Positions 36,820 through 56,175 of a DNA stretch of 64,000 bases are shown here, in pieces. Each line of letters opens with the position of its first letter. The first letter of the stretch is position 1. The notes below the pieces were generated by a model that did not search any database, was not told the origin of the DNA, and saw nothing but the letters and a program-made list of their open reading frames with translations. Made by a program: the position numbers and the translations under genes. Source of the stretch: an uncultured Anaerolineaceae bacterium (GTDB lineage Bacteria > Chloroflexota > Anaerolineae > Anaerolineales > Anaerolineaceae); NCBI GenBank assembly GCA_964532655.1, contig CAZHMZ010000003.1:8-64007 (forward strand). Reading direction: 5' to 3'.

Positions 36820-36846
36820 CGGGGTTTCACTTGTACTCGAAATATC

Positions 36847-36876
36847 AGGGCTGTCCTATCTGACAGCCCTTGATTT
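36847..36876 (+). terminator. Rho-independent terminator; last element before the compositional drop
   Basis: AGGGCTGTC-ctatct-GACAGCCCT followed by TGATTT. Confidence 0.65.
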
Positions 36877-37065
36877 ACGTGCTGGATTTTTAGAAATTAT
36901 GCGGGATTTTCAGTGTCGGTATGCAGTTCAGCCGGGTTCATCTACCCAATGGGGTGAGTCTGATAATTTAAAGTTTGGTGAGCCAGGATTTTTTCGATTC
37001 TGCAACCAATAAGATTCACCTGACTCACCATCGATATAAGCAAAGATTTAGCGCAATTTATTACA

Positions 37066-38556
37066 TTAATTGCCCTTGCTGGAATTTGAAAAACTGTACA
37101 GCAGATCAGCCAGTGATTCTTCAAATTCCAGTAAACCACCCACCTTGTCGTTTCCTTCAATGACCATATATTCATCCGGTCCGGAATGCCCGGTTGCATA
37201 GCTTAACCCGGTCGAATTCAGGGCCTTCAACCCCAGCATCTTGGAGAAGAACCCGGTCGGTCCTCCTGCGCCTTTTCTGGGCCAGATCAGAGGACTGATA
37301 TTCCACTCCTCAAAAACCTTAAGGGATGATTGAAGCAAAGCATCGGAGACGTTGAGTGGAATTTCAGCCGAAGAGGTTTCCAGCGGTGTCAACGTGATAT
37401 CGCTATATCCATTCTTATCCAGATGCTTGCGAATCTTATTGAGAATATCGATCGGATCCATATTATAGGGTAATCGAATATCGATTGTGCAGTAAGCTTC
37501 GTGGGGAAGAGTCCATAAAAGAGTCCCTGGGCCGGTGTAACCACCACGGATACCATTGATATTCATTGTCGGCGAATAAGAATACCGTGAAATAACTTCT
37601 GCACCTTTCTCATTGTTGATAAAGTGCTTAACCCGGTCTTTGCCGCCTAAAGCCGTGATCGCATCGCATTCTCTGCCTTTGTATTTGTCGGCCAGAATTT
37701 GAATTAATTCCTTTTCGTCTTCAGGGGGCACTTCAACATCATCATAAAAACCGTCAACCAGGACTTTGTTTGTTTCATGATCGTACATGGAATTCAGGGC
37801 TGAAACCAACCGCCAGACTGGCTGATCGACTATACATTGAACTGATGAATGAACAGAAGCTCCAATGGGACCCTTACCCCACATTTCTCCCGAGCATTTC
37901 ATTTCAAAATGCAAACAGCCTTTATTCCCCAGGTAAAGGGTCACATCGCCATCCATCGTCTGGCAGGCTTTGGGGAAAAGCAGAGCATCAGAATTTTTCA
38001 ACTGATCCTTGAAGCGATTAATCAGATAAGGGATCTGGTTACTACCCAGGAATTCATCTCCTTCGATGATGAAATTCAAGTTAACCGGCAATTCTCCTTC
38101 AACTTTCAGTATCGCTTCGATAACATTCAGGAATGCGATTAACCCACCTTTGTTCGATGCGCCTCTGCCAAACAAAACCTTTTTAAAAGGTTCATGTTGC
38201 TCAACTACTGCTTCGTAAGGTGGTTTACTCCAGTTTGCGCCAACCACATTTGTATCGTAGTAATCATATACAGTAATGGTTTTGTTCGACTTCCCTTTAT
38301 AACTGGCCCATAATGCAGGGAAACCAGGCGTCTCAATGATTTCAACATCAGTCAGCCCAACCTCCAAAAAAATCGATTTCAAAAGTTCGGCACATTCTCT
38401 GACGCCATTATTTTCAAGTGCCACACTTGGCTGCGAAATGAATTTTCGAAGACGTTGGATATGATCATTCTGAAGAAGATCAAGCTTTTCGTGTACTTTC
38501 TTTTTACCTGTTTCGTTTTTCATTTGAGTTTTCCTGTCAGTTTTCTTCGCTATCAT
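37066..38556 (-). CDS. M20-family metallopeptidase (dipeptidase/deacylase type)
   Basis: 496 aa with an M20-like layout: a catalytic domain with GRGASNKGG and EGDEF(L)GS motifs and a dimerisation-domain insert. An alternative start is M12 at 38523. Confidence 0.8.
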   Translation of the reverse strand: MIAKKTDRKTQMKNETGKKKVHEKLDLLQNDHIQRLRKFISQPSVALENNGVRECAELLKSIFLEVGLTDVEIIETPGFPALWASYKGKSNKTITVYDYYDTNVVGANWSKPPYEAVVEQHEPFKKVLFGRGASNKGGLIAFLNVIEAILKVEGELPVNLNFIIEGDEFLGSNQIPYLINRFKDQLKNSDALLFPKACQTMDGDVTLYLGNKGCLHFEMKCSGEMWGKGPIGASVHSSVQCIVDQPVWRLVSALNSMYDHETNKVLVDGFYDDVEVPPEDEKELIQILADKYKGRECDAITALGGKDRVKHFINNEKGAEVISRYSYSPTMNINGIRGGYTGPGTLLWTLPHEAYCTIDIRLPYNMDPIDILNKIRKHLDKNGYSDITLTPLETSSAEIPLNVSDALLQSSLKVFEEWNISPLIWPRKGAGGPTGFFSKMLGLKALNSTGLSYATGHSGPDEYMVIEGNDKVGGLLEFEESLADLLYSFSNSSKGN

Positions 38557-38647
38557 TTTTACAAAACCTGGATCAGATCAAAGTATTCCAGGAATTTCGT
38601 TTTCAATCTCTCTTTTTCTATAAATACCTTTCTCACTGGTATTGAGA

Positions 38648-39925
38648 TTAAGGCAAAAACACGGCCATATCTTTTCCAAATACGGGTGAGGAAACAAGAT
38701 CATCAAATCTTTTGTCGACTACAACGTCCCCATCTAAAATAACCGCCCTTACCCTCCCAAATGCATCAATGTCCTCAAGGGGGTTGCCATCCAAAAAGAT
38801 CATATCCGCTTTCTTGCCTGGAATAATCTGCCCGACATCCTCTGCATCAATCGCGTTGGCTGCGTCTCGGGTGGCTGCAAAAACCAGTTCCATGGGAGAT
38901 AAACCCGCCCGGCTTAATAACTTGAGGCCGATCGCATAATTACCAAATTCACGGATCGCATCTGTACCCATCACAATTCGGATGCCAAGCTCCTTAAATC
39001 GTCTGGTAAAGTCCAGTTTTGTTTCGAGCTTGTATTTTGCAGCCTGCAATTGTTGCTCTTCTGCATTGCTCAAACCAACAGTGGCTTTCTTATTTTCCAG
39101 CTGTTCAATCACGTTGTAACCTGTCTGGATGGTAGGGCTGATCGTCAAATTCTTCTTTGCGATCTTCTCCGCCGTGCTTTGAGAGAATTCCCTGACCCCA
39201 TTGGGCAAAAGGAAATTGAAATGCTCGATTTGATCGACGCCTGCATCAGCAGCCCGCTCAACAGAATCTGCCGAAATACAATGGGCAGTAGCTTTTTTCC
39301 CAAATTCGTGTATCTGATCTACGGCAGCTTTCATTTCTTTTGTAGTAAATGTTGGGCGGGTCGCATCGGTTCCCTTTGTTCCGCCCCCACTTGCCATAAT
39401 TTTCAGAAAATCTGCTCCGTCTTTAACCAACTGCCGGACCGCTTTTACAACTCCGACTTCACCATCTGCCTCCTGTCCACACCACCAGAAATGTCCACCG
39501 GTAGTAGTCAAAGGTCGGCCGCAGGCAAGAATTCGAGGGGATAGGAATAACTTCGCATCCCTTGCCTGTTTGATTGCGAACCCAACATTATTTCTCGCAC
39601 CGCAATCGCGTAATGTCGTAACGCCGGCTCGTAAATGTTTATACGCGTTCTTAGGGCCTCTCAGAATCATCAATTCATCACTATCGTTATGAATTACATC
39701 TTCATACGACCTTGGCGTGCCAAACATTAAGTGGGAATGGACATCAACAAATCCGGGCATCAGGGTCATCCCCTTCTGCTCGTACACCTTAATTCCTTCG
39801 GGCCAATTCTTACTTCCTGTTGGAACAATTTCGATGATCCTACCATTTTCAACACTGACATCAACAAATTTCTTCGGTTCCCGCCCAAATCCATCAATCA
39901 ATAAATCCGTTCGATATACCAGCAT
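38648..39925 (-). CDS. Amidohydrolase-superfamily metallohydrolase (COG1228-like; imidazolonepropionase / Xaa-Pro dipeptidase relatives)
   Basis: 425 aa with ligand pattern DVHSHL (HxH), FLKIMASGG (Lys), TAHC and MGTDA. AGGAGA precedes the ATG. Confidence 0.85.
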   Translation of the reverse strand: MLVYRTDLLIDGFGREPKKFVDVSVENGRIIEIVPTGSKNWPEGIKVYEQKGMTLMPGFVDVHSHLMFGTPRSYEDVIHNDSDELMILRGPKNAYKHLRAGVTTLRDCGARNNVGFAIKQARDAKLFLSPRILACGRPLTTTGGHFWWCGQEADGEVGVVKAVRQLVKDGADFLKIMASGGGTKGTDATRPTFTTKEMKAAVDQIHEFGKKATAHCISADSVERAADAGVDQIEHFNFLLPNGVREFSQSTAEKIAKKNLTISPTIQTGYNVIEQLENKKATVGLSNAEEQQLQAAKYKLETKLDFTRRFKELGIRIVMGTDAIREFGNYAIGLKLLSRAGLSPMELVFAATRDAANAIDAEDVGQIIPGKKADMIFLDGNPLEDIDAFGRVRAVILDGDVVVDKRFDDLVSSPVFGKDMAVFLP

Positions 39926-39949
39926 TTTTGTCTCCTGATTCTTGTCCTG

Positions 39950-40897
39950 CTAAAAAATTTCAGATAGATCGATATGCAATTCATTTTTAATAAAACTGAG
40001 TGGCATTTCCATTCGGCAGGTCATGGCAGGGTCTACCATCTGACAGATACGAATATCCCCAACAAGGCTGACCAGGATACCCATATCCACAATTGACTCA
40101 CCGGTCAATTCTGAAAGAAACATCACCATTTTTTCGACAGCCATCTTCGCAGCCAGATCAAGTGATTCTGCGGTCGCAATGACTGAAATACTTTGGGGAG
40201 TGATCAGAAATGGAAGAGGGAGTTTTTTCTCTCGTAAAAGAGTGATTTTCACCCGAACTTTTCCGCCTGTTTCAATCCCAGAACAACCCACTTCACCATC
40301 CCCCTGGGCCGAATGGAGGTCGCCCAGTGCCAGATTGCCGCCATCAATATAAACAGGCAGGAACAGTATTGAACCTTCTTTGATTTCTTTACAATCCAGG
40401 TTTCCTCCATGATCACCCGGCCAGCCTGCATTGATTTTTTGCTCCGGTGCTGTACCAATACATCCGATCATTGGATTGATGGGATATTTATACTTCTCTT
40501 CGTATACAAAATAATTTTCCACAACCGGAATAATGCGGCTTTCTGCTCCGGTTACGATGTCTCGGATGGCACCTTTTCCTTTTGCAGCCATAGCCCATCC
40601 CTGTTCATCGACTTTTAATTCGAGAATTTCAATCTTCAATATGTCCCCCTTGCGCGCACCTTTTACTGCGATGGGGCCGCCTAGGGCCATACCTGGTGAG
40701 TAATTCCCAAATGCTTCCCTGAATTTATCTGCTTGAGTTGCTACTCTCCTGTTTACATGGCCTCTCGAACTGCATAGGACATCTACGTCAACTATGTCTC
40801 CAGAATTTATCTCGAGAAGAGATTTTTTTTCTGGATCAAATTCAATTACATATTGATCTCTAGTGATGCTATAAATTTCTGGATTTTTGGTTTGCAT
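39950..40897 (-). CDS. Acetamidase/formamidase-family amidase (FmdA_AmdA)
   Basis: 315 aa with blocks GGPIAVKGARKGD, GGNLDCKEI and LGDLHSAQGDGEV, which I recognise as characteristic of this family. Confidence 0.75.
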   Translation of the reverse strand: MQTKNPEIYSITRDQYVIEFDPEKKSLLEINSGDIVDVDVLCSSRGHVNRRVATQADKFREAFGNYSPGMALGGPIAVKGARKGDILKIEILELKVDEQGWAMAAKGKGAIRDIVTGAESRIIPVVENYFVYEEKYKYPINPMIGCIGTAPEQKINAGWPGDHGGNLDCKEIKEGSILFLPVYIDGGNLALGDLHSAQGDGEVGCSGIETGGKVRVKITLLREKKLPLPFLITPQSISVIATAESLDLAAKMAVEKMVMFLSELTGESIVDMGILVSLVGDIRICQMVDPAMTCRMEMPLSFIKNELHIDLSEIF

Positions 40898-40923
40898 ACG
40901 AAGCCTTTAAACTTTCCTCATTT

Positions 40924-42171
40924 TTAATGGAAAGACAATTCTCTCTCGACAGCTTTCTCTACAACAATATCGCCATTAAGCACTACTGTTGAAATCTGAT
41001 TTACATTTGAAATATCGACCAGTGGATCTTGATCAAGGTAAATAAAATCCGCTGCATAACCGGGCTTTATGAGGCCAATTGTTGAACCCTGTCCGATTCC
41101 CGCAGCAGCTAGGCTCGTTGAGGCATTGATCGTTTCGAGTACTGATAACCCTGCATCATTGAATAATTTGAGCCCGATTGAATAATCACCAAATTGACTG
41201 GTTGCATCAGTACCGGCAATTATTTTTGCCCCCATTTTATGTAATTCACTCACGCAAAATAGTTTGGCCTCAAGTTTGTAGGATAATTCATCGAGTAGGT
41301 GTTTTTCAGTTTCCGATAAATATCCAATTCTTGACCTTAATTCTTCCAATTTACGATAACCAGTTTGTATGGTAGGGCAGACAAATAATTGATTTTTTAT
41401 AATCTGCTCGGCTACTTTATAATCGAACTCTCGTTTCCCATCTGGTTTTAGAAAGTTGATATGATCAATGACGTCCACTTTCGCCAGGGCAGCACGGCGA
41501 ATGCTTTCTGTGCAGAGACAATGAGCCTCGGTGGTTTTTCCTTGTGTATGAGCTTCATTAACAATTGCTATCATTTCATCAACCGAAAAGGTCGGTCGGA
41601 GCATATCAGAATTGGGTGTTCCACCTCCACCGCTTGCCATAATCTTGATAAAATCCGCGCCTTCTTTAATCAGCTTCCTGACTGATTTGACAACTTCGTC
41701 ATTTCCATCGGATTCTTCACCGCAAAAATAAAAATGCCCCCCAGTCATGGTAATGGGCCGTCCACAGACGTGAATCTTCGGCGAAAGATAAATAGCATGC
41801 TCTATGGCTTCTTTTATCGCAAAGCCAATTCCGGCAACAGAACCACTATCCCGAACAAATGTAACTCCAGAACGCAAGTGTTGATAGGCATTCCTGAAGA
41901 ATCGGATAAGGATTTCACCTGTTGAGTCATTGTTGATGACACCCAGATAATCACCGGATCCAGAACCAAACATTAGATGAGTATGGACATCGATCATTCC
42001 CGGGATGACCACACTCCCTGGTTTAGAGTAAACTCGATCGGTATCCAGTGAATAATCAGACTCACAGATATCAACGATTTTCTGGTTTTCCACAACAATA
42101 TCAATATCTTTTCTGGGCAACTGACCACTGCCATCGATCAATTTCTCGGTCCTGAAGATTTTTACTGTCAT
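40924..42171 (-). CDS. Amidohydrolase-superfamily metallohydrolase, paralogue of 38648-39925
   Basis: 415 aa with DVHTHL, FIKIMASGG, EAHC and AGTDA. It aligns by eye over its full length with the other copy. Confidence 0.85.
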   Translation of the reverse strand: MTVKIFRTEKLIDGSGQLPRKDIDIVVENQKIVDICESDYSLDTDRVYSKPGSVVIPGMIDVHTHLMFGSGSGDYLGVINNDSTGEILIRFFRNAYQHLRSGVTFVRDSGSVAGIGFAIKEAIEHAIYLSPKIHVCGRPITMTGGHFYFCGEESDGNDEVVKSVRKLIKEGADFIKIMASGGGGTPNSDMLRPTFSVDEMIAIVNEAHTQGKTTEAHCLCTESIRRAALAKVDVIDHINFLKPDGKREFDYKVAEQIIKNQLFVCPTIQTGYRKLEELRSRIGYLSETEKHLLDELSYKLEAKLFCVSELHKMGAKIIAGTDATSQFGDYSIGLKLFNDAGLSVLETINASTSLAAAGIGQGSTIGLIKPGYAADFIYLDQDPLVDISNVNQISTVVLNGDIVVEKAVERELSFH

Positions 42172-42187
42172 GAATTCATACTCACTT

Positions 42188-42225
42188 TGGAGATTACCTT
42201 ACGAAAAACTGTAAGGTAATCTCCA
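42188..42225 (-). promoter_or_regulatory. 15-bp perfect stem-loop directly after an SBP gene
   Basis: TGGAGATTACCTTAC-gaaaaact-GTAAGGTAATCTCCA, 19 nt past the SBP stop (42244), with no U-tract. Confidence 0.65.
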
Positions 42226-42243
42226 CATAACATCTATACTAAA

Positions 42244-43962
42244 TTACTGTGCCCACACCCATTCTTGAGGGTTCCAGTAGAAGTTCGCAAACGGATGCAG
42301 AACAAAGTTCTGCAAATCGGCGGTTACTGCATAAACCTGAACATTTTTGAAAAGATGAATGGTGTATGCATCATCGTTGATGATAGACTGCACCTGGAAA
42401 AGCATCTCAGTTCTCTTTTCTGAATCCAGTTCAACTGATTGTGCATTGAGCAATTCATCAACCTCGGAATTACAGTATCGATACCACTGTGCACCACTGG
42501 GGCGTTCGTCAGAGGCAACTTCACTGCATAAGAACCGGCTGGAAATTTCCGGATCAGGAACGCGGATACCGTGGCTCCAACCGCCCATTTCGTAATCACC
42601 AGTGGACCATGTTCCACCCTGATCATAAGTACCGAACAGATCTGTCGAAGGTTTGTTTTCGATAACCATTTCGACGCCGCATTCTTTGAACATCTGTTGC
42701 GCGATCAGTTGAATGTTTTCTCTCTGGAGATTCCCTGAGGTGGTTGCATGAGTAAAGCTTAATCTCTCTCCGTCTTTTTCCCGAATACCATCTCCGTCCT
42801 CATCTACCCACCCGGCATCTTCCAGGGTGCTTTTGCAATATTCGAGATCATATTCATAAGCAACCATTTCGGTGTTTTCCCAGGGTGTGTTATCCCACTC
42901 AGATGTTCCCGGTTCAGATAATCCGTAGAGAACTTCATCGATGATTTTCTCTTTATCCAGAGCGGCCTGAAGCGCTAAACGGATTTGCTTGTCCTGGAAT
43001 AACGGAGCATCAGGATTCATATGATAACGTTCTGTTCCTGAGCTGGGTGCGGTGATCAACTGGATGCCATCAGCTTCCATCACCTGAATTTGAGGAATAG
43101 ATGAGATCGGCATCGACCAGGCGATATCAATTTCTTTAGCCTGCAGAGCCTGCAACAGGGTATCCACACTGGGATAAGTCTTAATGATCAGACGTTTAAT
43201 ACTGGGGGCTCCTCTGAAGTAATCTTCAAATGCCTCATACTCGATATAATCACCGGTCGCCCATTCTACGATCTTATAGGGACCAAACCCGATCGGAGTT
43301 CGCATTGCTTCTGATTGATCGAGACCAGGGGTGTTTTCTTCGATGACATGTTGTGGAATGATGGCATCAAATAAAATCTGCCATGAAGCAAAGACCTCAG
43401 AGAAATTCATGATTACTGTGTAATCATCCGGTGTCTCCATACTGACGATTTTGTCATAACCGTAGCGAGTGATAGGTGTATTATCCGGGCTCATGATTGC
43501 TTCCCATGTTGCTTTCACATCTGAAGCAGTAACAGGTTTGCCATCATGCCAGGTGATACCTTCACGCAGATGGAAAGTGATTGTTTTTCCATCATTCGTA
43601 ATTCCACCATTATCGATGGTAGGAACTTCTTCGGCTAACTCACCAATCCAATTTGAGGTCTCATCCAGAAACAACAGACCTCTTTGAGCCAATTTTGCTG
43701 CCGAGATGCTGTTTCCACCCTGTGTATACAGGATATTCAGAAATTCAACTGCCTGGTGCATCCCAACAATTACGACATCGCCATGGCTGCTTTCAACTAC
43801 CTGCTCATTTGAAACCTCAGACTCGGTCTGACTGGTTTCCTGGACATTCGCAACTTCTGTTTCCTCTGTTTCCTGTGCAATCTCCCCGGTTGCAGGAGAA
43901 CAAGAAACAACCATCACCGCGATTACCAGGAAAGTAATCAACTTGCCAAAATACTTCATCAT
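42244..43962 (-). CDS. ABC transporter substrate-binding protein, family 5, probable lipoprotein (copy 2)
   Basis: The ORF track starts at GTG 44004. MMKYFGKLITFLVIAVMVVSCS at ATG 43962 follows AAGGAG and gives a signal peptide with a Cys. Confidence 0.9.
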   Translation of the reverse strand: MMKYFGKLITFLVIAVMVVSCSPATGEIAQETEETEVANVQETSQTESEVSNEQVVESSHGDVVIVGMHQAVEFLNILYTQGGNSISAAKLAQRGLLFLDETSNWIGELAEEVPTIDNGGITNDGKTITFHLREGITWHDGKPVTASDVKATWEAIMSPDNTPITRYGYDKIVSMETPDDYTVIMNFSEVFASWQILFDAIIPQHVIEENTPGLDQSEAMRTPIGFGPYKIVEWATGDYIEYEAFEDYFRGAPSIKRLIIKTYPSVDTLLQALQAKEIDIAWSMPISSIPQIQVMEADGIQLITAPSSGTERYHMNPDAPLFQDKQIRLALQAALDKEKIIDEVLYGLSEPGTSEWDNTPWENTEMVAYEYDLEYCKSTLEDAGWVDEDGDGIREKDGERLSFTHATTSGNLQRENIQLIAQQMFKECGVEMVIENKPSTDLFGTYDQGGTWSTGDYEMGGWSHGIRVPDPEISSRFLCSEVASDERPSGAQWYRYCNSEVDELLNAQSVELDSEKRTEMLFQVQSIINDDAYTIHLFKNVQVYAVTADLQNFVLHPFANFYWNPQEWVWAQ

Positions 43963-44156
43963 ATTTCTCCTTTGAATCAATATCTCATGCACAAAATCGT
44001 TCACTTTTCAAATCAACTAACTAAGGTCGTTTCACTTCTGTCTTACAAATCCATTTCGATAATTTTTCTCAAACCAACAATCGCAAGTATTTGTTTTTGA
44101 TTCAGAGATCTTTACCGAGATCCGTCCTCCTTTCAGTGATTTCAAAAAATAACGAC

Positions 44157-45107
44157 CTACCTTACAGAATATGGATCGAGGGCATCTCTCAGTCCATCTC
44201 CAATAAAGTTGATACACAACACCGTAATCAGGATCAATAAGCCCGGAAAAACGGCTATCCAGGGAGCTTCAATCAAGAAACTCTGAGCCCGATTAAGCAT
44301 ATTTCCCCATGTAGCTGTTGGCGGCTGAACACCAAGTCCAAGAAAGCTTAACTGTGCTTCATAGAGAATCGCCTGCCCAACACCCAAAGTTAAGGCAACA
44401 ACAATTGGCGCGATTGTATTTGGAATGATATGGGTGAAAAGAATCTCGCCCGCCGGAGTTCCAATAGATCTGGCAGCAAGCACAAAGTCCTGTTCTTTTA
44501 ACGATAAAACACTGGCACGAACAATTCGACTGACTCCCATCCATGCCAATGCACCAATCACAATGGTAATGATCCCAATACTTTGTCCAACCACTTTCGA
44601 TAAAATGATAAGGATAAATAATCTTGGAATGCTTAGCAATGCTTCAGTAAAACGCATTAAGATACTGTCAATCCAACCACCCTTATAACCGGAAAGCGCG
44701 CCGATTGTCACACCGATGAAAATACTGATGACTGCTGCCAGAATCCCAATCCTGAGTGAAACTCGCCCACCATAGATCGCACGCATGAACAGATCTCTAC
44801 CCAGGTCATCTGTCCCAAAGGGATGCTGCAGAGATGGGGCAGCTTTTAATGCCTTGAAATCTATGAAATTGGCTTCTTCTTCAGGAATAAACAACGGCAC
44901 CAAAAAACATATTGCGATCAGCAACAGCAATATGATGCTGCCACTCATTGCCAATTTATGACGTCTGAATCGACGTAGTATGAGATGAATCATTGATTCA
45001 GATTCACGCTCGATATCTCCAGAAGAAAGTAAATCTATAGCGGTATTCTCCGAATTTCCATTGATTTCATCTTGATTCAACTTACTGATACGACTGTCTT
45101 GTGCCAT
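44157..45107 (-). CDS. ABC transporter permease, DppC/OppC family
   Basis: 316 aa with FGTDDLGRDLFMRAIYGG and polytopic TM segments. Confidence 0.9.
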   Translation of the reverse strand: MAQDSRISKLNQDEINGNSENTAIDLLSSGDIERESESMIHLILRRFRRHKLAMSGSIILLLLIAICFLVPLFIPEEEANFIDFKALKAAPSLQHPFGTDDLGRDLFMRAIYGGRVSLRIGILAAVISIFIGVTIGALSGYKGGWIDSILMRFTEALLSIPRLFILIILSKVVGQSIGIITIVIGALAWMGVSRIVRASVLSLKEQDFVLAARSIGTPAGEILFTHIIPNTIAPIVVALTLGVGQAILYEAQLSFLGLGVQPPTATWGNMLNRAQSFLIEAPWIAVFPGLLILITVLCINFIGDGLRDALDPYSVR

Positions 45108-45118
45108 AATTCATCCTA

Positions 45119-46084: not shown

Positions 46085-46144
46085 ATTGCCCTCACTTAAG
46101 TAAAAATCGATTCAAGAAAGCATGTGTTTTTGCCGTATCTTGTA

Positions 46145-46194
46145 TTCCGAAGCTATTACATGCAGTGTTGGTTTTCAATGTAATAGCTTCGGAA
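46145..46194 (-). promoter_or_regulatory. 17-bp perfect stem-loop directly after an SBP gene
   Basis: TTCCGAAGCTATTACAT-16 nt-ATGTAATAGCTTCGGAA, 23 nt past the SBP stop (46217). Confidence 0.65.
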
Positions 46195-46216
46195 AATTTT
46201 CCCAACTAGCCTTGTA

Positions 46217-47956: not shown

Positions 47957-48119
47957 TTTCTCCCATATTTCCAATTGCTTTCAGATCAAACCATTAACAG
48001 TACAAAAATTTTCCGGTTCACCTCCTGGTATGCAATAAATGCTTTGAGTAATTTGGTAGAACATATTTCATACGGAGTCTCGCGCCTGGTAAAGTGTTCT
48101 TTTTATCTCGAAAGCATTT

Positions 48120-49100
48120 CTATACTTGGTGGCATGCGCAATAATGGCCAGGCGCTACCTCTACCAGCTCTGGTTTTTCGTGGAAACAGCGATCGATTGC
48201 TCGATAACACCGAGGGCTGAAGTTACAGCCTTTCGGAGGATTTGCTGGAGATGGAACGTCACCCTCCAGAATAATCTGGGTTCGCTGTCTTTCAATTTTT
48301 GGATCAGGAATCGGAACAGCAGATAATAATGCAACCGTGTATGGATGGAGAGGTGTTTTGTATAACGAATTTCTATCTGTGATTTCTACGATTTTTCCAA
48401 GATACATTACTGCTATTCGATCAGATATGTGACGAACCATACTCAGGTCATGCGCAATAAAAAGGTACGTAAGGTTGAATTCCTGCTGAATATCTTCGAG
48501 CAAATTGACGACCTGAGCCTGGATCGATACGTCGAGGGCCGAAATTGGCTCATCACAAACAATGAATGAAGGATACAAAGCCAATGCTCTGGCGATACCA
48601 ACTCTCTGTCTTTGACCTCCAGAGAATTCAAAAGGATACCGGTTAATGAAACTGGGATTTAACCCAACCAATTTCATTAAATCCTTTACTTTCTCGGATC
48701 TTTCTTTTGCTTCACCAACATGGTGTACCCGTAAAGGTTCGCCGATGATAGAACCAATTGTCATGCGTGGATTCAGTGACGCATAAGGATCCTGAAAAAT
48801 CATTTGCATCTGTCTTCGAACAGGCCTGAGTTCTTCTTCTGTTAAAGTGGTAAGCTCCTGGTTTTTAAACTTTACACTTCCCGAAGTTGGATGATAAAGT
48901 TGCAGTATCGCCCTTCCCGTTGTTGATTTTCCACAGCCACTTTCTCCAACCAGACCCAGGGTTTCCCCTTTTTGAATATCTACAGTTATTCCATCGACTG
49001 CCTTGATGGAGCCAATCTGTTTTTGGATAATCACTCCACGGGTAATTGGAAAATGCATCACCAGATTATTGATTTGAACTAACGTTTCGTTATCACTCAT
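48120..49100 (-). CDS. ABC transporter ATP-binding protein, OppF/DppF type
   Basis: Walker [10 protein letters not shown], signature FSGGQRQR, Walker B FIVCDEP, and a C-terminal oligopeptide-ABC extension. Confidence 0.92.
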
Positions 49101-49113
49101 TTAGCCCTCACTA

Positions 49114-50082
49114 TTAATCGATCGCCCAACAAGCAACCTCATGGTTTTCAGATACTCTCTCTAGTACTGGATTGCTTGACTGACATTTTTCCATCCGAGA
49201 TTCACAACGTTTATAAAATGGGCAACCAGCAGGGGGTTTTAACAGATCTGGAGGTGTACCTGGAATGGATTTCAGCCGTTTACGATTTTCGTCATCGACT
49301 CTTGGTAAAGAACCCAATAATCCTTTTGTGTATGGATGTTTCGGCTCATCATAGATATGATCAACCAAACCCTTTTCAACGATATATCCGCCATACATTA
49401 CATTTACTTTTTGAGCAAAACCTGCCACAACACCAAGATCATGAGTAATCCAAATGACAGACATTCCCAGGTTCTCACTTAACTTTTTTACCAATTGGAC
49501 GATCTGTGCCTGGATAGTAACGTCCAGAGCTGTGGTAGGTTCATCTGCGATTAATATTTCCGGATTGCAGGACAAGCCCATTGCAATCATCACGCGTTGG
49601 CGCATTCCTCCTGAAAATTGGAACGGGTAATCATTGATTCGATCTTTCGCTTTGGGAATTCCTACCATTTCAAGCAATTCGATTGCTCGATTGATCGCCA
49701 AACCTTGTGATAGACCTAAGTGCAGTTTAAGGGATTCTGTAATTTGGGTTTTTATCGTCAAAACCGGATTGAGGGAGGTCATTGGATCCTGGAAGATCAT
49801 CGAAATTTTATTTCCACGGATTTTCCGAATATCCTCTTTGGATATTTTTAGAATATCCTGGCCGTTATAAATGACCTCTCCTTCAGTAATTTTCCCGGGC
49901 GGTTCAGGTATGAGTCGTAAAATGGAAAGAACTCCGACGCTCTTTCCACAACCGCTTTCTCCTACGATCGCTAAAGTCTCACCTTGATCAAGGGTATAAG
50001 ATATCCCATTCACGGCATGTACAATTCCATCGTGAGTATGAAATTGTGTTTTCAGGTTTTTTACTTCAAGAAGATGAGCCAT
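49114..50082 (-). CDS. ABC transporter ATP-binding protein, OppD/DppD type
   Basis: Walker [10 protein letters not shown], signature FSGGMRQR, Walker [12 protein letters not shown]. The start [10 protein letters not shown] at ATG 50082 follows AGGAAG; the ORF track extends to 50106. Confidence 0.92.
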
Positions 50083-50177
50083 ATAACTTCCTATCCCATG
50101 CAACATAACTTACACGAATTGTTTACCAAAATTTCTAAATCACCTGTTTTGCTATTTTTAGAGGTATATTCTTCAAG

Positions 50178-50420
50178 TTACGCATATTCCGTATCTTTGA
50201 ATACCTCTCGGGCTACTTCACTCTTTTCGATAAAAATGGCCAGATCAGGGCAGCCGAATTCGCATAACCTGCATTGAATACAGTTTTCAGCCTGATATAC
50301 CTCTGCCGCTCTGTATCCGCGCACATTCATGTGTTCTGAAAGGCGCAATACATCTTTGGGGCAATAAAAGAGACACAATCCACAACCTTTACAAACCTGC
50401 TCATCGATATGGATCGCCAT
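50178..50420 (-). CDS. 2x[4Fe-4S] ferredoxin-type delta subunit of 2-oxoacid:ferredoxin oxidoreductase
   Basis: 80 aa with CKGCGLCLFYCP and CIQCRLCEFGCP. Its start codon abuts the sucD-like stop. Confidence 0.8.
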   Translation of the reverse strand: MAIHIDEQVCKGCGLCLFYCPKDVLRLSEHMNVRGYRAAEVYQAENCIQCRLCEFGCPDLAIFIEKSEVAREVFKDTEYA

Positions 50421-51293
50421 TTAACTCACTCCCAGCTTATTGATGATCCTGACAATATCTGAAGGGCTGTAAGCAATCTTCACTCCGGCTGCCTCCAGTG
50501 CGTCAATTTTGCTTTGTGCTGTACCCACCTTACCCTCCACAATCGCTCCGGCGTGACCCATTTGAGTACCCTCCGGGGCGTATCTTCCAACGATCAGGCT
50601 GATAACGGGCTTGCTGACATGTTCGCGGATATAGTCTGCCGCATCAATTTCCATACGGCCCCCAACCTCACCCAGCATCACAATTACCTTCGTTTCCGGA
50701 TCCGCCTCGAAACGCTTCAGCACTTCGATTTGTGATAATCCCCAGTACGGCCCACCGCCAATTCCAACCACCGTCGTTTGTCCGATGCCGTTTTCGGTTA
50801 ATTCTTTTCCGACTTCGTACGACAGTGCCCCGCTCTTGGATAGAATCCCCACAAAGCCTTCTTTGTAGAATTTATGCGGATGAACACCCAGTTTGCATTT
50901 CCCTGGAGAAATCAGGCCTGCGGTATCCGGACCGACGACAACCGAATTCTTTTCTCGGGCATAATTGATGATGGTCAGCATGTCACGATCAGGGATGCCT
51001 TCAGAGGTAATGACCTGAAGTCCGATCCCTGCATCAATCACTTCCAACGCCGCATCTTTTGCGAAACGGGCAGGCACAAACCCGAAGGCAGCGTCGATTT
51101 TATGTTCTGCCACAGCTTCTTTGACAAAATCATAGACCGGGATCCCAAATATTTCTGTTCCGCCTTTTCCCGGGGTAATACCTGCCACGATCCTGGTTCC
51201 GTATTCCTGCATGATCCTGGTCTGGAATGATCCAACATTACCGGTAATTCCCTGGATCAGCACATTTGTGTTTTGATCAATTAAGATAGCCAT
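50421..51293 (-). CDS. sucD: Succinyl-CoA synthetase alpha-subunit-type protein (CoA-binding, phosphohistidine)
   Basis: 290 aa with VLIQGITGNVGSF and the phosphohistidine loop MGHAGAIV. Confidence 0.88.
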   Translation of the reverse strand: MAILIDQNTNVLIQGITGNVGSFQTRIMQEYGTRIVAGITPGKGGTEIFGIPVYDFVKEAVAEHKIDAAFGFVPARFAKDAALEVIDAGIGLQVITSEGIPDRDMLTIINYAREKNSVVVGPDTAGLISPGKCKLGVHPHKFYKEGFVGILSKSGALSYEVGKELTENGIGQTTVVGIGGGPYWGLSQIEVLKRFEADPETKVIVMLGEVGGRMEIDAADYIREHVSKPVISLIVGRYAPEGTQMGHAGAIVEGKVGTAQSKIDALEAAGVKIAYSPSDIVRIINKLGVS

Positions 51294-51298
51294 CTTCT

Positions 51299-52432
51299 CT
51301 ATTTCCCTGCCAGCGAAACAGCTTCTTTTACTGCACTGGTCAAGCTGTAGAATGTTGAGAGTCCGACCTGTTGTAAAATGCTCCGGCCTTCATCTTCTTT
51401 GGTCCCGCACATACGAACAACAAAAGGAACCGTCATGCCTTTCTCCCTGACGTACATCGCAATTCCGTCAGCCATTTCATCCATACGTGTCATTCCACCA
51501 ATCAGGGAGATCAATAACACTTTCACCGACGGATTTGCCAGTACAACCTTAATTGCCTTACAGACCGATTCCGGGTTTGCCAGGCCACCCAGTTCACAGA
51601 AGTTCGCTGGCCGCCCGCCTTCATCATTCACCAGATCGAGCGTCAGCATGCCGGTGCCGGCCCCATCCGTCAACATACCCACATTACCATCCAGTTGAAC
51701 GAATTTCACCCCATTTTCCTTCGCCATTTTTTCGGCAGTACTGGTAACCTTGTTTAAACGATATTTTTGTTGTGTTCTGATTTGTTGATAAAATTCAGGG
51801 TTCTGAGATTCTGCCTTATTGTCAATCTCGATTTTTCCATCCAGCGCCAGCAATCCTTTTTCGGTCATTGCCAGCGGATTGATCTCTACCAGAGTCGCGT
51901 TTTTTTCAACGAGGATCTCAAACAATCCCTGGATCGCCTTCTTCAGTTCTTTTGTACCGGCCAGCCCGAGATACTTCGCCAGATAACGCACCATGAAATC
52001 CTGGACACCCAGGAAATAATCCAGTTGGATTTTGATGATCTTCTCAGGATTATTTTTCGCTACCTGCTCAATATCCATACCGCCCATCGGGCTGGCGACA
52101 ATGATTGAATTATTTGTTTGTTTGTCAAACAGCAGTGACAGATAGATTTCCTGGCTGGTCTTAACAGGTTCTTCCACCAGCACAGTCTGTGTGTTGTATC
52201 CGCGGATGTCTGAATTTTGATACTTTTCAAAAATCTCGACCGCTTCATTTCCATGGTTCGCTAATTTAATGCCTCCTGCCTTGCCTCTTCCTCCAATCGG
52301 GATCTGGGCTTTAATCATGGCAGGATACTGGCACTTCTGGAGCTCTTCCTTTGTCGAGACTACCATCGACTCCGGTACCGGAATGCCATGTTCTTTAAAC
52401 AACTGTTTTGCTTGCCATTCGAGTAGTCGCAT
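51299..52432 (-). CDS. sucC: Succinyl-CoA synthetase beta-subunit-type protein (ATP-grasp)
   Basis: 377 aa: MRLLEWQAKQLFKEHGIPVP, IKAQIPIGGRGKAGGIK and a C-terminal ligase-CoA domain. Confidence 0.88.
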   Translation of the reverse strand: MRLLEWQAKQLFKEHGIPVPESMVVSTKEELQKCQYPAMIKAQIPIGGRGKAGGIKLANHGNEAVEIFEKYQNSDIRGYNTQTVLVEEPVKTSQEIYLSLLFDKQTNNSIIVASPMGGMDIEQVAKNNPEKIIKIQLDYFLGVQDFMVRYLAKYLGLAGTKELKKAIQGLFEILVEKNATLVEINPLAMTEKGLLALDGKIEIDNKAESQNPEFYQQIRTQQKYRLNKVTSTAEKMAKENGVKFVQLDGNVGMLTDGAGTGMLTLDLVNDEGGRPANFCELGGLANPESVCKAIKVVLANPSVKVLLISLIGGMTRMDEMADGIAMYVREKGMTVPFVVRMCGTKEDEGRSILQQVGLSTFYSLTSAVKEAVSLAGK

Positions 52433-52435
52433 TCT

Positions 52436-53011
52436 CTACCTTCCTGTACTGCCAATCAATTCTTTCGCAAATTCAATACCCTTACCGGCAGCTTCTAAAT
52501 TTGTGGAAAGAAATTTTGCGGGCACATTTTCCGAAATGATCGCAAATAAATCTTCCTGCGAAACCAGTCCGGTATACTGTTGTAAAAATCCCATCACAAC
52601 CATGTTTGCAGCAATGCGTAAACCCAACTCAGAGGCAATTTCAGTAGCCGGTAATTCATAAATCGTGATATCATCGCGTTGCGGCCTGGTCACCAGTCCG
52701 GGATCCATGATTAAAACTTTTCCGGGTCCCAGGTGGCGAATATAGGTATTCAAAGCCTGCTGTGACATGGAGATCAATATGTCGACTTCGTCCGATGTCG
52801 GAGACAGGATTTCTGCTTTCGAAAGAATCAGTTCGGCCTGACACTGACCGCCACGAGCTTCCGATCCATACGAAGATGTCTGAACGGCGTTGAATCCAGC
52901 CTTAAGGACTGCTGCGGTGCCAAAAATTACGGATGACAGAACGATCCCTTGCCCGCCAAATCCGGTGAAATGGATGGTGGTACGTTGCGATAATGACATC
53001 ATATCTGTCAC
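52436..53011 (-). CDS. 2-oxoacid:ferredoxin oxidoreductase gamma subunit
   Basis: 191 aa with FTGFGGQGIVLSS typical of POR/KGOR gamma. It has a 4-nt overlap with beta. Confidence 0.85.
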   Translation of the reverse strand: MTDMMSLSQRTTIHFTGFGGQGIVLSSVIFGTAAVLKAGFNAVQTSSYGSEARGGQCQAELILSKAEILSPTSDEVDILISMSQQALNTYIRHLGPGKVLIMDPGLVTRPQRDDITIYELPATEIASELGLRIAANMVVMGFLQQYTGLVSQEDLFAIISENVPAKFLSTNLEAAGKGIEFAKELIGSTGR

Positions 53012-53850
53012 CTGTTCTTCCTCTCAACACCAATTACTGAGCTACCCTCAAAGATGGGTTTTTCAATATCTCTGAATATTCCTAAAGCAAAACTGTTTTC
53101 CGCATCAGTTTCCGGTTTCTCGTATGCTTTATCATCGTTAATCGAGTGGTCTTTGATCCATTTGATTGTCTCGGTTGGCACATCAGTACCGATGGCCCGC
53201 CGGCCAAAATTGGTGGGGCATTGTGTGATGATCTCGACAAAAGAAAAACCCTTATGCTGCAAAGCCTTCTTGATGATATTTGTCGCGCTCACCGGCTTGA
53301 CGGTAGTGGTACGGGCAACAAAAGTTGCTCCTGCTGCCATTGTCAGCCTGCACAGATCAAAACTGGGCTCTTCATTTCCATAAGGGGTGGTCGTCGTGAT
53401 AATCCTGGGCAGCGTCGTTGGAGCTACCTGGCCACCGGTCATGGCAAAATTGAGATTGTTCGAGACAATCATGGTCACATCCAGATTACGTCTCGCCGCC
53501 TGGATCAGGTGATTTCCGCCAATGGCTGCCGCATCACCATCCCCTGAAAAAATGACCACTTTCAAGTCCGGGTTGGTTAATTTGATGCCGGTCGCCCAGG
53601 CCAGGGTACGACCGTGTACCCCATGCAACGTCTCGGTGCGCATGTAAACCGGTATGCGGGCGGTACAGCCCACACCGCCAATGGTCACCAGTTGATCAAA
53701 ATCCAGGTGTAAGTCATCTGCAGCTTTGAGAAAGAAATTCAACACCTGCGCTGATCCGCAGCCGGAACAAAAAAAGTGAGGCAGGCTTCCTTCTCTGAGG
53801 TATTTCTTTAAGGGATGTGTCATTTCAGGGATCATGGGTTGAGTTGTCAT
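53008..53850 (-). CDS. 2-oxoacid:ferredoxin oxidoreductase beta subunit (TPP-binding)
   Basis: 280 aa with FCSGCGS and the TPP motif SGDGDAAAIGGNH. It has a 4-nt overlap with alpha. Confidence 0.9.
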   Translation of the reverse strand: MTTQPMIPEMTHPLKKYLREGSLPHFFCSGCGSAQVLNFFLKAADDLHLDFDQLVTIGGVGCTARIPVYMRTETLHGVHGRTLAWATGIKLTNPDLKVVIFSGDGDAAAIGGNHLIQAARRNLDVTMIVSNNLNFAMTGGQVAPTTLPRIITTTTPYGNEEPSFDLCRLTMAAGATFVARTTTVKPVSATNIIKKALQHKGFSFVEIITQCPTNFGRRAIGTDVPTETIKWIKDHSINDDKAYEKPETDAENSFALGIFRDIEKPIFEGSSVIGVERKNR

Positions 53851-54995
53851 AGAGCTGCCTCAATTTCTGACTGGATCTCCTTCGGGGTATGAATGATGCC
53901 GCGATTCTTGGTTATTCGCTGCACTTCACACTGTCCATTGCAGGCTCTTTCGATTTCCATGGAATACTTGCCGATATTCATTTCCACAGAAAAAATCTTT
54001 CTACACTGGCGTGCTAAAGTCGAAATTTCTCGTTCAGGAACCGGCCACACATTTTCCAGCTTCAGCAAACCAATCTTGTGGCCTTTTGCGCGTAAAGTGT
54101 TGACCACCTCTAATGCCGGCCGGCTTTCGCTTCCATATGCAATCACCCCGTAATCGGCATCGTCAAGGTAGAAAGCCTTCGTTCGAACGATATCATCGTA
54201 ATGAGCCTGTACCTTACCGGTGATCCGTGAATACAACCTTTCAAATACATCAGGATCCCAGTGAATACCCCCGGCTTCATCATGCGGGTTAAGGGAGTGT
54301 AAAATTGCGTAACCTTCTCCAAAATCCGGCAGCGGAGGAACGCCATTTTTCTCAGCCTTGAAGGGGAGAAACTGATCTGGAGATACTTCCGGTTTCTTCC
54401 GGTGCACAATTTCGATTTCTTCTTCAGCAGGGATTACCAGTTTTTCACGCATGAGTGCAATGGTGGTTTCTGACATGACCGATACCGGCATACGGTATTT
54501 TTCAGCCAGGTTGAATGCGCGAATGGTGAAGTCAAAAAGTTCCTGCACTGAAGACGGTGCCAGAACGATCATTTCATGATCGCCGCTTGGGCCCCAACGG
54601 AATTGCATCACATCGGCCTGAGTGGCATAATTTTCTCCCCGGCAGCGCATAACATTGACGATGACGGCCGGGATCTCGCTGGCAATCATGTAACCAATGC
54701 CTTCCTGCATATAGTTATATCCGGCGCTGGCTGTTGCAGTCATTGCCCGGGCGCCGGCAAGAGAAGCACCGCTCAAAGCATAAATCGAGCATAGTTCATC
54801 TTCGCCCTGCAAAAATCGCCCACCCACTTCGGGCAGCCGGCGAGACATATGTTCGGAGATTTCATTGGCCGGGGTAATAGGGTATCCTGCAAAAAAGTCA
54901 CACCCGGCAGCCAGGGCGCCTTCCACCACGGCGAAATTCCCCAGCATAAAATGGGTACCGGTCATCACGCGTTGATTCGTATCTTGTTTTCTCAT
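53847..54995 (-). CDS. 2-oxoacid:ferredoxin oxidoreductase alpha subunit
   Basis: 382 aa with GNFAVVEGALAAGCDFFAGYPITPANEI, typical of KorA/PorA. Confidence 0.9.
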   Translation of the reverse strand: MRKQDTNQRVMTGTHFMLGNFAVVEGALAAGCDFFAGYPITPANEISEHMSRRLPEVGGRFLQGEDELCSIYALSGASLAGARAMTATASAGYNYMQEGIGYMIASEIPAVIVNVMRCRGENYATQADVMQFRWGPSGDHEMIVLAPSSVQELFDFTIRAFNLAEKYRMPVSVMSETTIALMREKLVIPAEEEIEIVHRKKPEVSPDQFLPFKAEKNGVPPLPDFGEGYAILHSLNPHDEAGGIHWDPDVFERLYSRITGKVQAHYDDIVRTKAFYLDDADYGVIAYGSESRPALEVVNTLRAKGHKIGLLKLENVWPVPEREISTLARQCRKIFSVEMNIGKYSMEIERACNGQCEVQRITKNRGIIHTPKEIQSEIEAAL

Positions 54996-55008
54996 CCCGG
55001 TTCACCAC

Positions 55009-56175
55009 TTATATTCGATCGAGAGTTTCGTTGATGCGCTTGATACCTTCGACAATATTTTCTTTTGATGTCGAATAACAAAGTCTCAGATACCCCTCGC
55101 CGCATGCTCCAAAGGCCGAACCGGGTACGGTGGCTACATGGGCTTTTGCTAACAGCAAATTAGCCAGATCCACACCCGGGATATTCACCTTATAGGATGG
55201 GAAGGTATAGAATGCGCCTTCGGGGACAAAACAATCAAAGTGTTTTGATTCCTGCAGCAACCTGACCATCAGATCTCTGCGTTCCCGATATCCCTTTGCC
55301 ATGGCCTGTGAGGCACGTTTTGATTCATCATTTTTCAATGCCTCGATGGCGCCAGCCTGAGCGAATGCTGTAACACACGTGGCTGAATGCTGGTAAACCT
55401 TAACCATTCCCTCCAATATTGCTTTGGGACCGGTTACATAACCCAGACGCCAGCCGGTCATCGCATGACTCTTGGAGAAGGCATTGACTGTGATGACATT
55501 GTCAAATTCGGATGCAGCACTGTAATGCTGGCCTTCATACAGCAGATATTCGTAAACTTCGTCGCATAAAACCAGGCTGCCATTTGAGCGGGCTAATTCG
55601 ACGATTTCACGAATGGTAGATCGGTCATACACCGCGCCAGTTGGGTTACATGGTGTGTTGATCACCACGACCTTGACGCGGGGTGTCAGCGTACGTTTGA
55701 TCAAATCAATATCCGGGCGAAATCCATTCTCTGCGGTGGATGGGATATGGATTGTGGTCCCGCCAGCCATCTGAACCATTGACTGATAGGATACCCATGC
55801 AGGATCCAGAACCATTACTTGATCACCCTGTGAAAGAAGCGCCTGAAATACCAAATAAATGGCAAATTTGCCACCCGGGGTAACAATGATATCTTCTGAG
55901 GAAACCTGAATACCGTTTTCTTTTTGGAACTTTTTCGCAATCAAATCTCGAAGCTCAGGATCTCCGTTGGTCGGTTCATATTTCGTCTTGCCTCGTTCCA
56001 ATGCAAGCTGGGCTGCCCGAACAATATTCTCTGGCGTGTTAAAACAAGGTTCACCACCCCCAAACGGGATGATGTCTGTTACACCTTCCTGTTTCATTCG
56101 TTTTACGATATTGTCCACTTCATCGGTTGCGGATAATTCGAGCCTTTCAACCTTGTCTGCTAAATGCAATTCCAT
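55009..56175 (-). CDS. PLP-dependent aminotransferase class I/II (aspartate/aromatic aminotransferase type)
   Basis: 388 aa with NPCNPTG, the SKSHAMTGWRLGY Lys-PLP region and a terminal R..YS motif. Confidence 0.9.
   Translation of the reverse strand: MELHLADKVERLELSATDEVDNIVKRMKQEGVTDIIPFGGGEPCFNTPENIVRAAQLALERGKTKYEPTNGDPELRDLIAKKFQKENGIQVSSEDIIVTPGGKFAIYLVFQALLSQGDQVMVLDPAWVSYQSMVQMAGGTTIHIPSTAENGFRPDIDLIKRTLTPRVKVVVINTPCNPTGAVYDRSTIREIVELARSNGSLVLCDEVYEYLLYEGQHYSAASEFDNVITVNAFSKSHAMTGWRLGYVTGPKAILEGMVKVYQHSATCVTAFAQAGAIEALKNDESKRASQAMAKGYRERRDLMVRLLQESKHFDCFVPEGAFYTFPSYKVNIPGVDLANLLLAKAHVATVPGSAFGACGEGYLRLCYSTSKENIVEGIKRINETLDRI

Follow-up and report, generated by a model that had tools for sequence, protein, structure and literature searches.

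A 17-gene train in an uncultured Anaerolineaceae bacterium joins an importer and amide-bond hydrolases to a recurrent aminotransferase-Kor-SucCD cassette, a probable route from peptides or amides to succinate

Results

The 17-gene train

Why would an importer, a set of amide-bond hydrolases, and the enzymes for oxidizing a 2-oxoacid be strung together on one strand, and which compound would they handle? The question is raised by a train of 17 genes at positions 37066-56175 of a 64,000-nt stretch of DNA from an uncultured Anaerolineaceae bacterium (assembly GCA_964532655.1, contig CAZHMZ010000003.1, positions 8 to 64,007, forward strand), here called the window. Our analysis makes it probable that a GntR-controlled catabolic island has this train as its main operon and would take imported peptides or amides through D/L-glutamate to succinate and ATP. 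The original prediction for this DNA had listed 17 open reading frames (ORFs) on one strand. All of them exist, on the minus strand, and Pfam and NCBIfam models bore out the families and the order given for them. In transcription order, they are as follows.

55009-56175 (-), class-I aminotransferase (AT), AspAT subgroup Ib-like; PF00155; best PDB match Thermus AspAT (1.6e-93)
53847-54995 (-), KorA, alpha subunit of a 2-oxoacid:ferredoxin oxidoreductase (OFOR); POR_N + PFOR_II; NF006412 437.6 bits against a cut-off of 411 (generic 2-oxoacid model)
53008-53850 (-), KorB, OFOR beta; thiamine pyrophosphate-binding; GDGD and conserved Cys; NF007207 245 against a cut-off of 364
52436-53011 (-), KorC, OFOR gamma; POR domain
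51299-52432 (-), SucC-like; ATP-grasp_2 + Ligase_CoA; nested inside the Kor gene set
50421-51293 (-), SucD-like; CoA-binding and ligase domains; GHAGA phosphohistidine motif at residue 246
50178-50420 (-), KorD, OFOR delta ferredoxin, 2x[4Fe-4S], 80 aa; two CxxCxxCxxxCP motifs
49114-50106 (-), OppD-like ATPase, Opp/Dpp-type, oligo_HPY C-terminal domain
48120-49100 (-), OppF-like ATPase, Opp/Dpp-type, oligo_HPY C-terminal domain
46217-47974 (-), substrate-binding protein 1 (SBP1), SBP_bac_5 lipoprotein; followed by a hairpin with a 19-bp stem (about 46144-46197)
45119-46084 (-), OppB-like permease, BPD_transp_1
44157-45107 (-), OppC-like permease, BPD_transp_1
42244-44004 (-), SBP2, SBP_bac_5 lipoprotein, 59% identical to SBP1; followed by a hairpin with a 14-bp stem (about 42188-42225)
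40924-42171 (-), amidohydrolase 1 (AH1), COG1228-type Amidohydro_1; HxH metal motif
39950-40897 (-), short FmdA_AmdA amidase (Fmd), 315 aa; Pfam/NCBIfam
38648-39925 (-), AH2, Amidohydro_1; HxH metal motif
37066-38556 (-), M20 peptidase; Pfam/NCBIfam

The gaps between successive genes are 13, -4, -4, 3, 5, 0, 71, 13, 145, 132, 11, 152, 72, 26, 24, and 91 bp. The start and stop codons of KorA/KorB and of KorB/KorC overlap by 4 bp, suggesting translational coupling, and SucD directly abuts KorD. We found no T-tract terminator within the train, and promoter-like and terminator-like sites in it did not exceed the expectation from shuffled sequence and are uninformative on internal promoters either way. 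The co-directional run extends upstream of the train to genes for a GntR/FCD regulator, an M17 aminopeptidase, a RidA-family protein, and a glutamate-racemase-like protein. From the sequence, we infer that the 17 genes are co-transcribed. The arrangement exceeds chance, because the order AT-KorABC-SucCD-KorD recurs in every related contig that is long enough and in G009, a genome from another genus of the same family, and because the hydrolase quartet recurs in two metagenome-assembled genomes (MAGs), L001 and L002.

A recurrent cassette with a nested SucCD pair

A metagenome scan with the SucC protein returned 22 loci at 46-50% identity, in which the order KorA-KorB-KorC-SucC-SucD-KorD is kept wherever the contig reaches. 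In all nine loci long enough to show it, AT precedes KorA; the gene for a MurI-like racemase precedes AT in five of eight, and a GntR gene lies upstream of the racemase in four. The cassette order, (GntR)-(MurI-like)-AT-KorABC-SucCD-KorD, is the same in the 22 metagenome contigs and in three genomes (G009, L001, and L002). By comparison, Kor stands next to an ordinary SucC (≤40% identity) in none of 58 loci. The 23 nested SucC proteins form one branch (SH-aLRT 98) of a quick maximum-likelihood tree, outside the canonical SucC clade and apart from the 58 plain SucC and from the host's own paralogue C22. The closest match to the SucC of the window, at 74% identity, is found on a 38-kb contig. 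Positions 4817-7179 of L001 hold KorA and AT genes that look frameshifted or fused; this is not seen in L002 and is probably a long-read indel error.

The nested SucC turned up in one of 60 relatives, in none of three congeners, and in none of 400 genomes of the phylum. The host genome (G000) holds two further SucCD pairs, which are paralogues. Because of this patchy distribution, these additional SucCD pairs, and the separate canonical MurI described below for two genomes, we conclude that the cassette is accessory and not housekeeping.

Which 2-oxoacid would the cassette oxidize? The Pfam domains give the oxidoreductase the four-subunit composition (alpha, beta, gamma, and delta) of Kor/KGOR-type enzymes. 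The best models for KorD are OorD and OGOR_delta, both of 2-oxoglutarate enzymes, at 58 bits against cut-offs of 93 and 125, and the best model for KorB is likewise a 2-oxoglutarate enzyme, with a score below its cut-off. The best PDB match of KorA is the alpha subunit of the Pyrococcus 2-keto acid:ferredoxin oxidoreductase, and those PDB relatives that have a named substrate are 2-oxoglutarate synthases. SucD passes two succinyl-CoA ligase alpha models (NF004230, 356.4 against 336; TIGR01019, 354.7 against 353.2), and SucC falls below the canonical equivalog cut-off (NF001913, 344.5 bits against 370). In the comparison with Thermus AspAT, the aminotransferase keeps the lysine of the GGK motif, which may be the determinant for acidic substrates (Lys109 of the Thermus enzyme).

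An oxidoreductase nearest to 2-oxoglutarate enzymes, a SucD that passes the succinyl-CoA synthetase model, an AspAT-like aminotransferase, and a MurI-like racemase in the same cassette all point to a funnel for D/L-glutamate. The steps proposed originally, namely import, hydrolysis, transamination, ferredoxin-linked decarboxylation, and substrate-level phosphorylation, fit the families, and the AT-Kor-SucCD synteny in more than 25 loci speaks for them. The generic 2-oxoacid route is the part that probably does not hold; the most likely sequence is D/L-glutamate to 2-oxoglutarate, succinyl-CoA, and succinate.

The racemase-like protein of the neighboring operon

Upstream of the train, three genes form a second unit.

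59565-60434 (-), glutamate-racemase-like; TIGR00067 at 188.6 bits (cut-off 146.65); both catalytic Cys
59109-59480 (-), RidA-family enamine/imine deaminase; PF01042, TIGR00004 above cut-off
57484-59031 (-), M17 leucyl aminopeptidase; PF00883; NF002074 at 487 bits (cut-off 415)

The racemase-like protein passes TIGR00067, the model for MurI, and has the motifs ACNTAS and GCT. After the second catalytic Cys it reads GCTDFPC and thus does not have the conserved His of GCTH[Y/F]P. The same position distinguishes two groups of proteins: all 10 cassette-linked racemases carry GCTD[F/L][T/P]C, whereas all 22 stand-alone MurI with a readable motif carry GCTH[Y/F][P/A]F, including the second copies of G062 and G009. 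The cassette-linked proteins also have an extra conserved Cys four residues on (window, L001, L002, L053, L056, L060-L062, and L125). On these motifs, the putative racemases of the cassette are a distinct subfamily.

The protein of the window is only 31-39% identical to the MurI of its relatives. Nearly all other relatives have exactly one canonical MurI, and G062 and G009 have a separate canonical MurI besides their GCTD-type copy. A search for canonical MurI (TIGR00067, E≤1e-30) returned none in the four genomes of the host's genus g1 (G000-G003, 89-92% complete), which argues that the island copy is not an inherited or ancestral housekeeping gene.

Predicted promoters, operators, and regulator

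The train is preceded by a regulator gene and by the following sites, listed with those of the racemase unit.

56571-57317 (-), GntR/FadR-type regulator, winged helix-turn-helix and FCD domains; PF00392 + PF07729
56467-56505 (-), intrinsic terminator (stem and T6), 3' of gntR, separating gntR from the 17-gene train
56237-56285 (-), head promoter TTGACT-17-GATAAT (56285-56257), then a perfect 16-bp palindrome ATATCCTATAGGATAT (56237-56252)
60519-60534 (-), operator-like site, 13/16 match, with the exact half-site ATATCCTAT; abuts the -10 of the promoter of the murI-like/ridA/M17 unit
57444-57476 (-), hairpin with a 16-bp stem, -29 kcal/mol, 3' of the M17 stop codon

The palindrome starts 4 nt past the head promoter, and a further operator-like half-site lies at 57431-57439, downstream of the M17 hairpin. 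The exact half-site ATATCCTAT has seven copies in the 3.98-Mb genome, four of which are within three promoter regions of the island. In G009, a consensus promoter (TTGACA-17-TATAAT) is followed by TATATCCTATAGGATATA, which contains the entire 16-mer of the window's operator, and this promoter heads a train with a GntR orthologue of 47% identity. L061 and L062 have TTGATA-17-TATAAT and then CCTATAGGATAT (12/16 match), upstream of a GntR with 41% identity. GntR orthologues at 37-47% identity are found 5' of the cassette in G009, L053, L060, L061, and L062. The operator is absent from L002, as is the gntR gene. Matching palindromes beside orthologous regulators in G009 and L061/L062 indicate that the pairing of regulator and operator is conserved. 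The palindrome is a predicted operator, to which GntR would bind, and the GntR/FCD protein is presumably the repressor of the island.

The original prediction had placed all the steps behind one regulated promoter. A good head promoter, a perfect palindromic operator, and an intrinsic terminator just upstream agree with this. The claim has to be widened, as the island has three operator-bearing promoter regions, and weakened, as strong hairpins follow both SBP genes. Hairpins in this position are typical of differential mRNA stability in ABC (ATP-binding cassette) operons.

As a side observation, a nonribosomal peptide synthetase module (C-A-T-TE, thioesterase-ended) occupies positions 24-3158 of L125, a G009 locus, and stops just 5' of the promoter that, with its operator, heads the G009 train.

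Source and composition of the island

The host MAG G000 is an Anaerolineae-type Chloroflexota genome of 297 contigs and 3.98 Mb (91% complete, 5.4% contamination). The stretch that starts near 36.85 kb and runs to the end of the contig has a GC content of 43-48%, among the lowest 1-10% of 5-kb windows in a genome of 53.2% GC. The GC at third codon positions (GC3) is 0.57-0.69 in native genes but 0.35-0.54 in island genes, with lower values in the transport and hydrolase genes than in the core genes. This low-GC block looks like a horizontally acquired, foreign island that reaches the contig end.

36820-37065 (no strand), island boundary: convergent terminator hairpins between the native C26 gene and M20, GC3 drop, junction bridged by independent contigs
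63131-63991 (-), C45-family autoproteolytic acyltransferase/hydrolase; passes NF040521; distal end of the low-GC block

A chimeric assembly was considered as the source of the GC step and ruled out by an even depth of 3-6x on both sides in four bioreactor or biogas-fermenter runs. Two independent metagenome contigs span the junction (36287-37327) with zero mismatches. Run X1 is labeled RNA-Seq, and its contigs behave as DNA. The metagenome runs place the host sequence in anaerobic bioreactors and biogas fermenters. No tRNA was found at the island border, and an Rfam scan of 36-64 kb returned no riboswitch or leader.

The C45 gene encodes a further amide-bond enzyme and may be part of the island. 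Between it and the murI-like operon lie four small ORFs on one strand (60944-63036, +); the three that were compared with Pfam (260, 138, and 120 aa) gave no match. Just beyond the opposite border, in native-GC DNA, is a gene for a PuuD-like C26 gamma-glutamyl hydrolase (36022-36819, +), and L001 has a gamma-glutamyltranspeptidase gene (14971-16644) just outside its low-GC hydrolase block. The two may be a coincidence or may reflect a gamma-glutamyl theme.

Importer and hydrolases

The train encodes a full Opp/Dpp-type importer, with two ATPases, two permeases, and SBP_bac_5 proteins with an export signal. SBP1 and SBP2 have lipoprotein signal peptides with acidic linkers. In the PDB, their nearest relatives are binding proteins for peptides, nickel, opines, or amino-acid amides, and the two are ≤33% identical to the SBPs of related islands. 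All four hydrolases lack a signal peptide; hydrolysis would therefore follow import and be cytoplasmic. The nearest structures to AH1 and AH2 are carboxypeptidase- and prolidase-type amidohydrolases (Cc2672, Sgx9260, and ochratoxinases); the two proteins score 171.5 and 205.6 bits on NF051886, against an equivalog cut-off of 500, which makes this a family-level similarity only. The nearest structures to M20 are carboxypeptidases and dipeptidases, and the PDB relatives of Fmd have no function assigned. Among the 5.8 billion proteins of a database, a single cluster is close to Fmd (77%), after which identity drops to 46% (further relatives at 41-46%).

Three known routes were considered for these genes and rejected. 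A hydantoinase/carbamoylase pathway does not fit, given that the racemase passes the MurI model, the amidohydrolases match D-hydantoinase only at E values of 1e-4 to 1e-5, and the M20 protein is dipeptidase/carboxypeptidase-like. A Hut-like route (imidazolonepropionase, deiminase, and formyl-glutamate amidase) was discarded, as the amidohydrolases are far nearer to the carboxypeptidase type (1e-50/1e-60) than to HutI (1e-13) and both HutH and HutU are missing. Membership in the MeAmi_SBP system for amino-acid amides was dismissed because 8UPI is too distant from SBP1 (E 5.2e-22, ranked 24th).

The genome holds about 25 SBP_bac_5 genes or systems. Outside the island, native-GC DNA of the window encodes a second Opp-type system (26127-29916, -), and a second short FmdA-like gene, 43% identical, is on contig C115 (4402-5082).

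Feeders beside the cassette in other loci

The quartet AH1-Fmd-AH2-M20 is kept only in L001 and L002, at 68-77% identity. Other loci have their own neighbors beside the cassette.

L045: Liv-type importer and M29-like protein adjoin the cassette
L053: M20, Amidohydro_3, and creatininase-family protein adjoin the cassette
L054 (972-3033): MtmB-like protein, corrinoid protein, and CUT1-type importer, 5' of the cassette
L056: M20D-type amidohydrolase; SBP_bac_5 directly after KorD
L061: SBP_bac_8 and MalK-type ATPase

The content of L054 suggests a methylated-amine feeder into the same funnel. The best model for the Amidohydro_3 protein of L053 is PRK09061, which may once have been titled D-glutamate deacylase. 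The co-directional train of G009 comprises about 28 genes and is longer than that of the window, with the Opp importer in the same position. It begins with GFO and DUF885 genes, followed by GntR-MurI-AT-Kor-Suc-KorD; after KorD come a GFO gene, a ThrC-like PALP enzyme, and OppD-OppF-SBP-OppB-OppC; and its 3' part has DUF885, GFO, and SDR genes and ends with a COG1228 amidohydrolase.

Because the importers and hydrolases beside the core vary by genome, the design appears to be one of a funnel with exchangeable feeders. The packaging had been called unusual. This stands for the exact combination of 17 genes, which the comparative search over related loci and genomes found nowhere else, and it does not stand for the general plan, since a core followed by a transporter and hydrolases recurs in G009, L056, and L045.

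Discussion

These data allow us to propose how the island would work. The Opp-type ABC importer, with its two lipoprotein binding proteins, would take up a small peptide or amide, from which the four cytoplasmic amide-bond hydrolases and the M17 aminopeptidase would release glutamate and other residues. The MurI-like racemase of the neighboring operon would equilibrate D- and L-glutamate, running from D to L in the pathway. The AspAT-like aminotransferase would then convert L-glutamate to 2-oxoglutarate, the four-subunit Kor would turn this into succinyl-CoA, CO2, and reduced ferredoxin, and the nested SucCD would yield succinate and ATP. Acting on the ATATCCTATAGGATAT operator, the GntR/FCD protein would keep three promoters repressed as long as no effector is present. 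We consider this scheme likelier to be right than wrong; glutamate, 2-oxoglutarate, and succinyl-CoA as substrates, the catabolic direction, and the repression are its inferred elements.

Several observations weigh against this scheme. The enzyme specificities are predictions: KorB, KorD, and SucC score below the NCBIfam equivalog cut-offs, and the matches of the amidohydrolases, M20, and Fmd are at family level only. The Asp in place of His beside the second catalytic Cys means that the racemase may act on something other than free glutamate. The reactions of Kor and SucCD are reversible. An exit route or acceptor for the amino group is not encoded in the island, and a gene of the glutamate dehydrogenase (GDH) family lies elsewhere in the genome. 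Strong hairpins stand 3' of both SBP genes, and GC3 is somewhat different from block to block. In L001 and L002, the quartet is divergent to MurI-AT-Kor-Suc with no transporter between them; together with the wholly different feeders elsewhere, this implies that the three blocks can function apart.

A looser explanation is one that we find doubtful: a general glutamate/2-oxoglutarate energy module would lie beside a generic peptide-scavenging module, perhaps co-regulated and with no single dedicated substrate. The blocks are indeed found apart or otherwise combined elsewhere, the roughly 25 SBP_bac_5 systems mark the genome as that of a general peptide scavenger, and both the hairpins at the SBP borders and the lower GC3 of the transport and hydrolase genes would suit two separate modules. 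Mere adjacency, however, would hardly account for the tight gaps, the single head promoter with its operator, and the absence of any T-tract terminator inside the train, nor for the same operator on the murI-like/ridA/M17 unit. It is also at odds with the adjacency of core and hydrolase quartet in two other MAGs and with G009, where Opp again comes after the core in this order.

Two further explanations keep the pathway and change its direction or its substrate. Reductive-branch glutamate synthesis is known from some anaerobes, and the reversibility of Kor and SucCD is established biochemistry, so the cassette might be anabolic: SucCD would activate succinate, Kor would reductively carboxylate succinyl-CoA to give 2-oxoglutarate, the aminotransferase would make L-glutamate, and the racemase would make D-glutamate for the cell wall, the more so as G000 has only this MurI-like gene. 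We judge this improbable. The cassette is patchily distributed among relatives, congeners, and the phylum, sits in a low-GC island, and is linked to importers, amide hydrolases, and regulators of the GntR/FadR type; G062 and G009 retain a separate canonical MurI, and the congeners are otherwise similar yet lack any MurI. Slightly more improbable still is the use of another dicarboxylic amino acid by the same architecture, for example 2-aminoadipate via 2-oxoadipate and glutaryl-CoA to glutarate. The separate clade and low score of SucC, the changed active-site residue of the racemase, and a KorA that passes only the generic 2-oxoacid model would accommodate such an analogue, but SucD and the racemase score above the cut-offs of the succinyl-CoA ligase model and of TIGR00067, respectively, and the nearest named relatives of Kor are 2-oxoglutarate enzymes.

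Within the preferred scheme of glutamate catabolism, a more specific version can be offered tentatively. The cassette could be a dedicated, mobile, strictly anaerobic pathway for ATP from D-glutamate, fed by peptides of cell walls or necromass that contain D-Glu or amidated D-isoglutamine, or by fragments of poly-gamma-glutamate. The FmdA-like amidase would then remove the alpha-amide, the amidohydrolases, M20, and M17 would strip neighboring residues, and the racemase would run catabolically. If this were true, the cassette would fill the place of a missing anaerobic sink for the D-glutamate of peptidoglycan or poly-gamma-glutamate, and D-amino acids and peptidoglycan would be turned over in anoxic systems by a route not yet described.

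In anaerobic digesters and sediments, Anaerolineae are abundant scavengers about which little is understood. Their energy gain from diverse nitrogen-rich debris would be explained by a portable cassette ("glutamate to succinate plus ATP") that works with varied sets of importers and hydrolases. The cassette offers three markers for metagenomes (the nested SucC clade, the GCTD racemase, and the operator palindrome), and the regulator-operator pair is well defined.

How does the island compare with known systems? In the fermentation of peptides and glutamate by Thermococcales and other anaerobes, an aminotransferase or GDH is followed by KGOR and an ADP-forming succinyl-/acyl-CoA synthetase. The island shares this three-step energy logic and the enzyme families, and the best PDB match of KorA comes from Pyrococcus. 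It differs in having a bacterial SucCD-type ligase nested between KorC and KorD and in adding the AspAT-like aminotransferase, the MurI-like racemase, GntR, importers, and hydrolases. To our knowledge, the archaeal genes are not packaged as such a cassette.

Murein-peptide operons (dpp-ykf of Bacillus subtilis; mppA/mpaA/ycjG/pepD of Escherichia coli) couple an Opp/Dpp-type importer with peptidases that act on stem peptides containing D-Glu, with participation of an M20 dipeptidase. They rely on an L-Ala-D/L-Glu epimerase and on M14 or NlpC/P60 enzymes, and they lack a Kor/SucCD energy module. The island resembles them in packaging an Opp/Dpp-type importer with peptidases, including M20, but has none of the epimerase, M14, or NlpC/P60 families, and the link to them is hypothetical.

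SBP_bac_5 ABC systems associated with FmdA_AmdA, which are proteobacterial and ANTAR-linked, take up L-amino acid amides (MeAmi_SBP, PDB entry 8UPI; bioRxiv 10.1101/2024.02.22.581678). As in those systems, an SBP_bac_5 protein, an ABC transporter, and an FmdA_AmdA amidase stand in one gene string here. In contrast, 8UPI is distant from SBP1, behind AppA and many others, and the MeAmi systems have no amidohydrolases, M20, or Kor/SucCD core. AH1 and AH2 have their fold family, their HxH motif, and their best PDB and NCBIfam matches in common with COG1228 enzymes (the L-Arg carboxypeptidase Cc2672, 3MTW; the Xaa-Pro dipeptidases of the Sgx9260 type; and ochratoxin-degrading amidohydrolases), although their scores are far under the equivalog cut-off (172-206 against 500 bits).

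Like housekeeping MurI, the racemase of the cassette passes TIGR00067 and has both catalytic cysteines. Unlike it, the protein has the GCTD-type motif, is always linked to the Kor-SucCD cassette, and is extra to canonical MurI in G062 and G009. We found no description in the literature of a nested Kor-SucCD cassette with a MurI-like racemase. What appears to be new here is the conserved cassette with its racemase subfamily and its operator, whereas the energy logic itself is that of known peptide fermentation.

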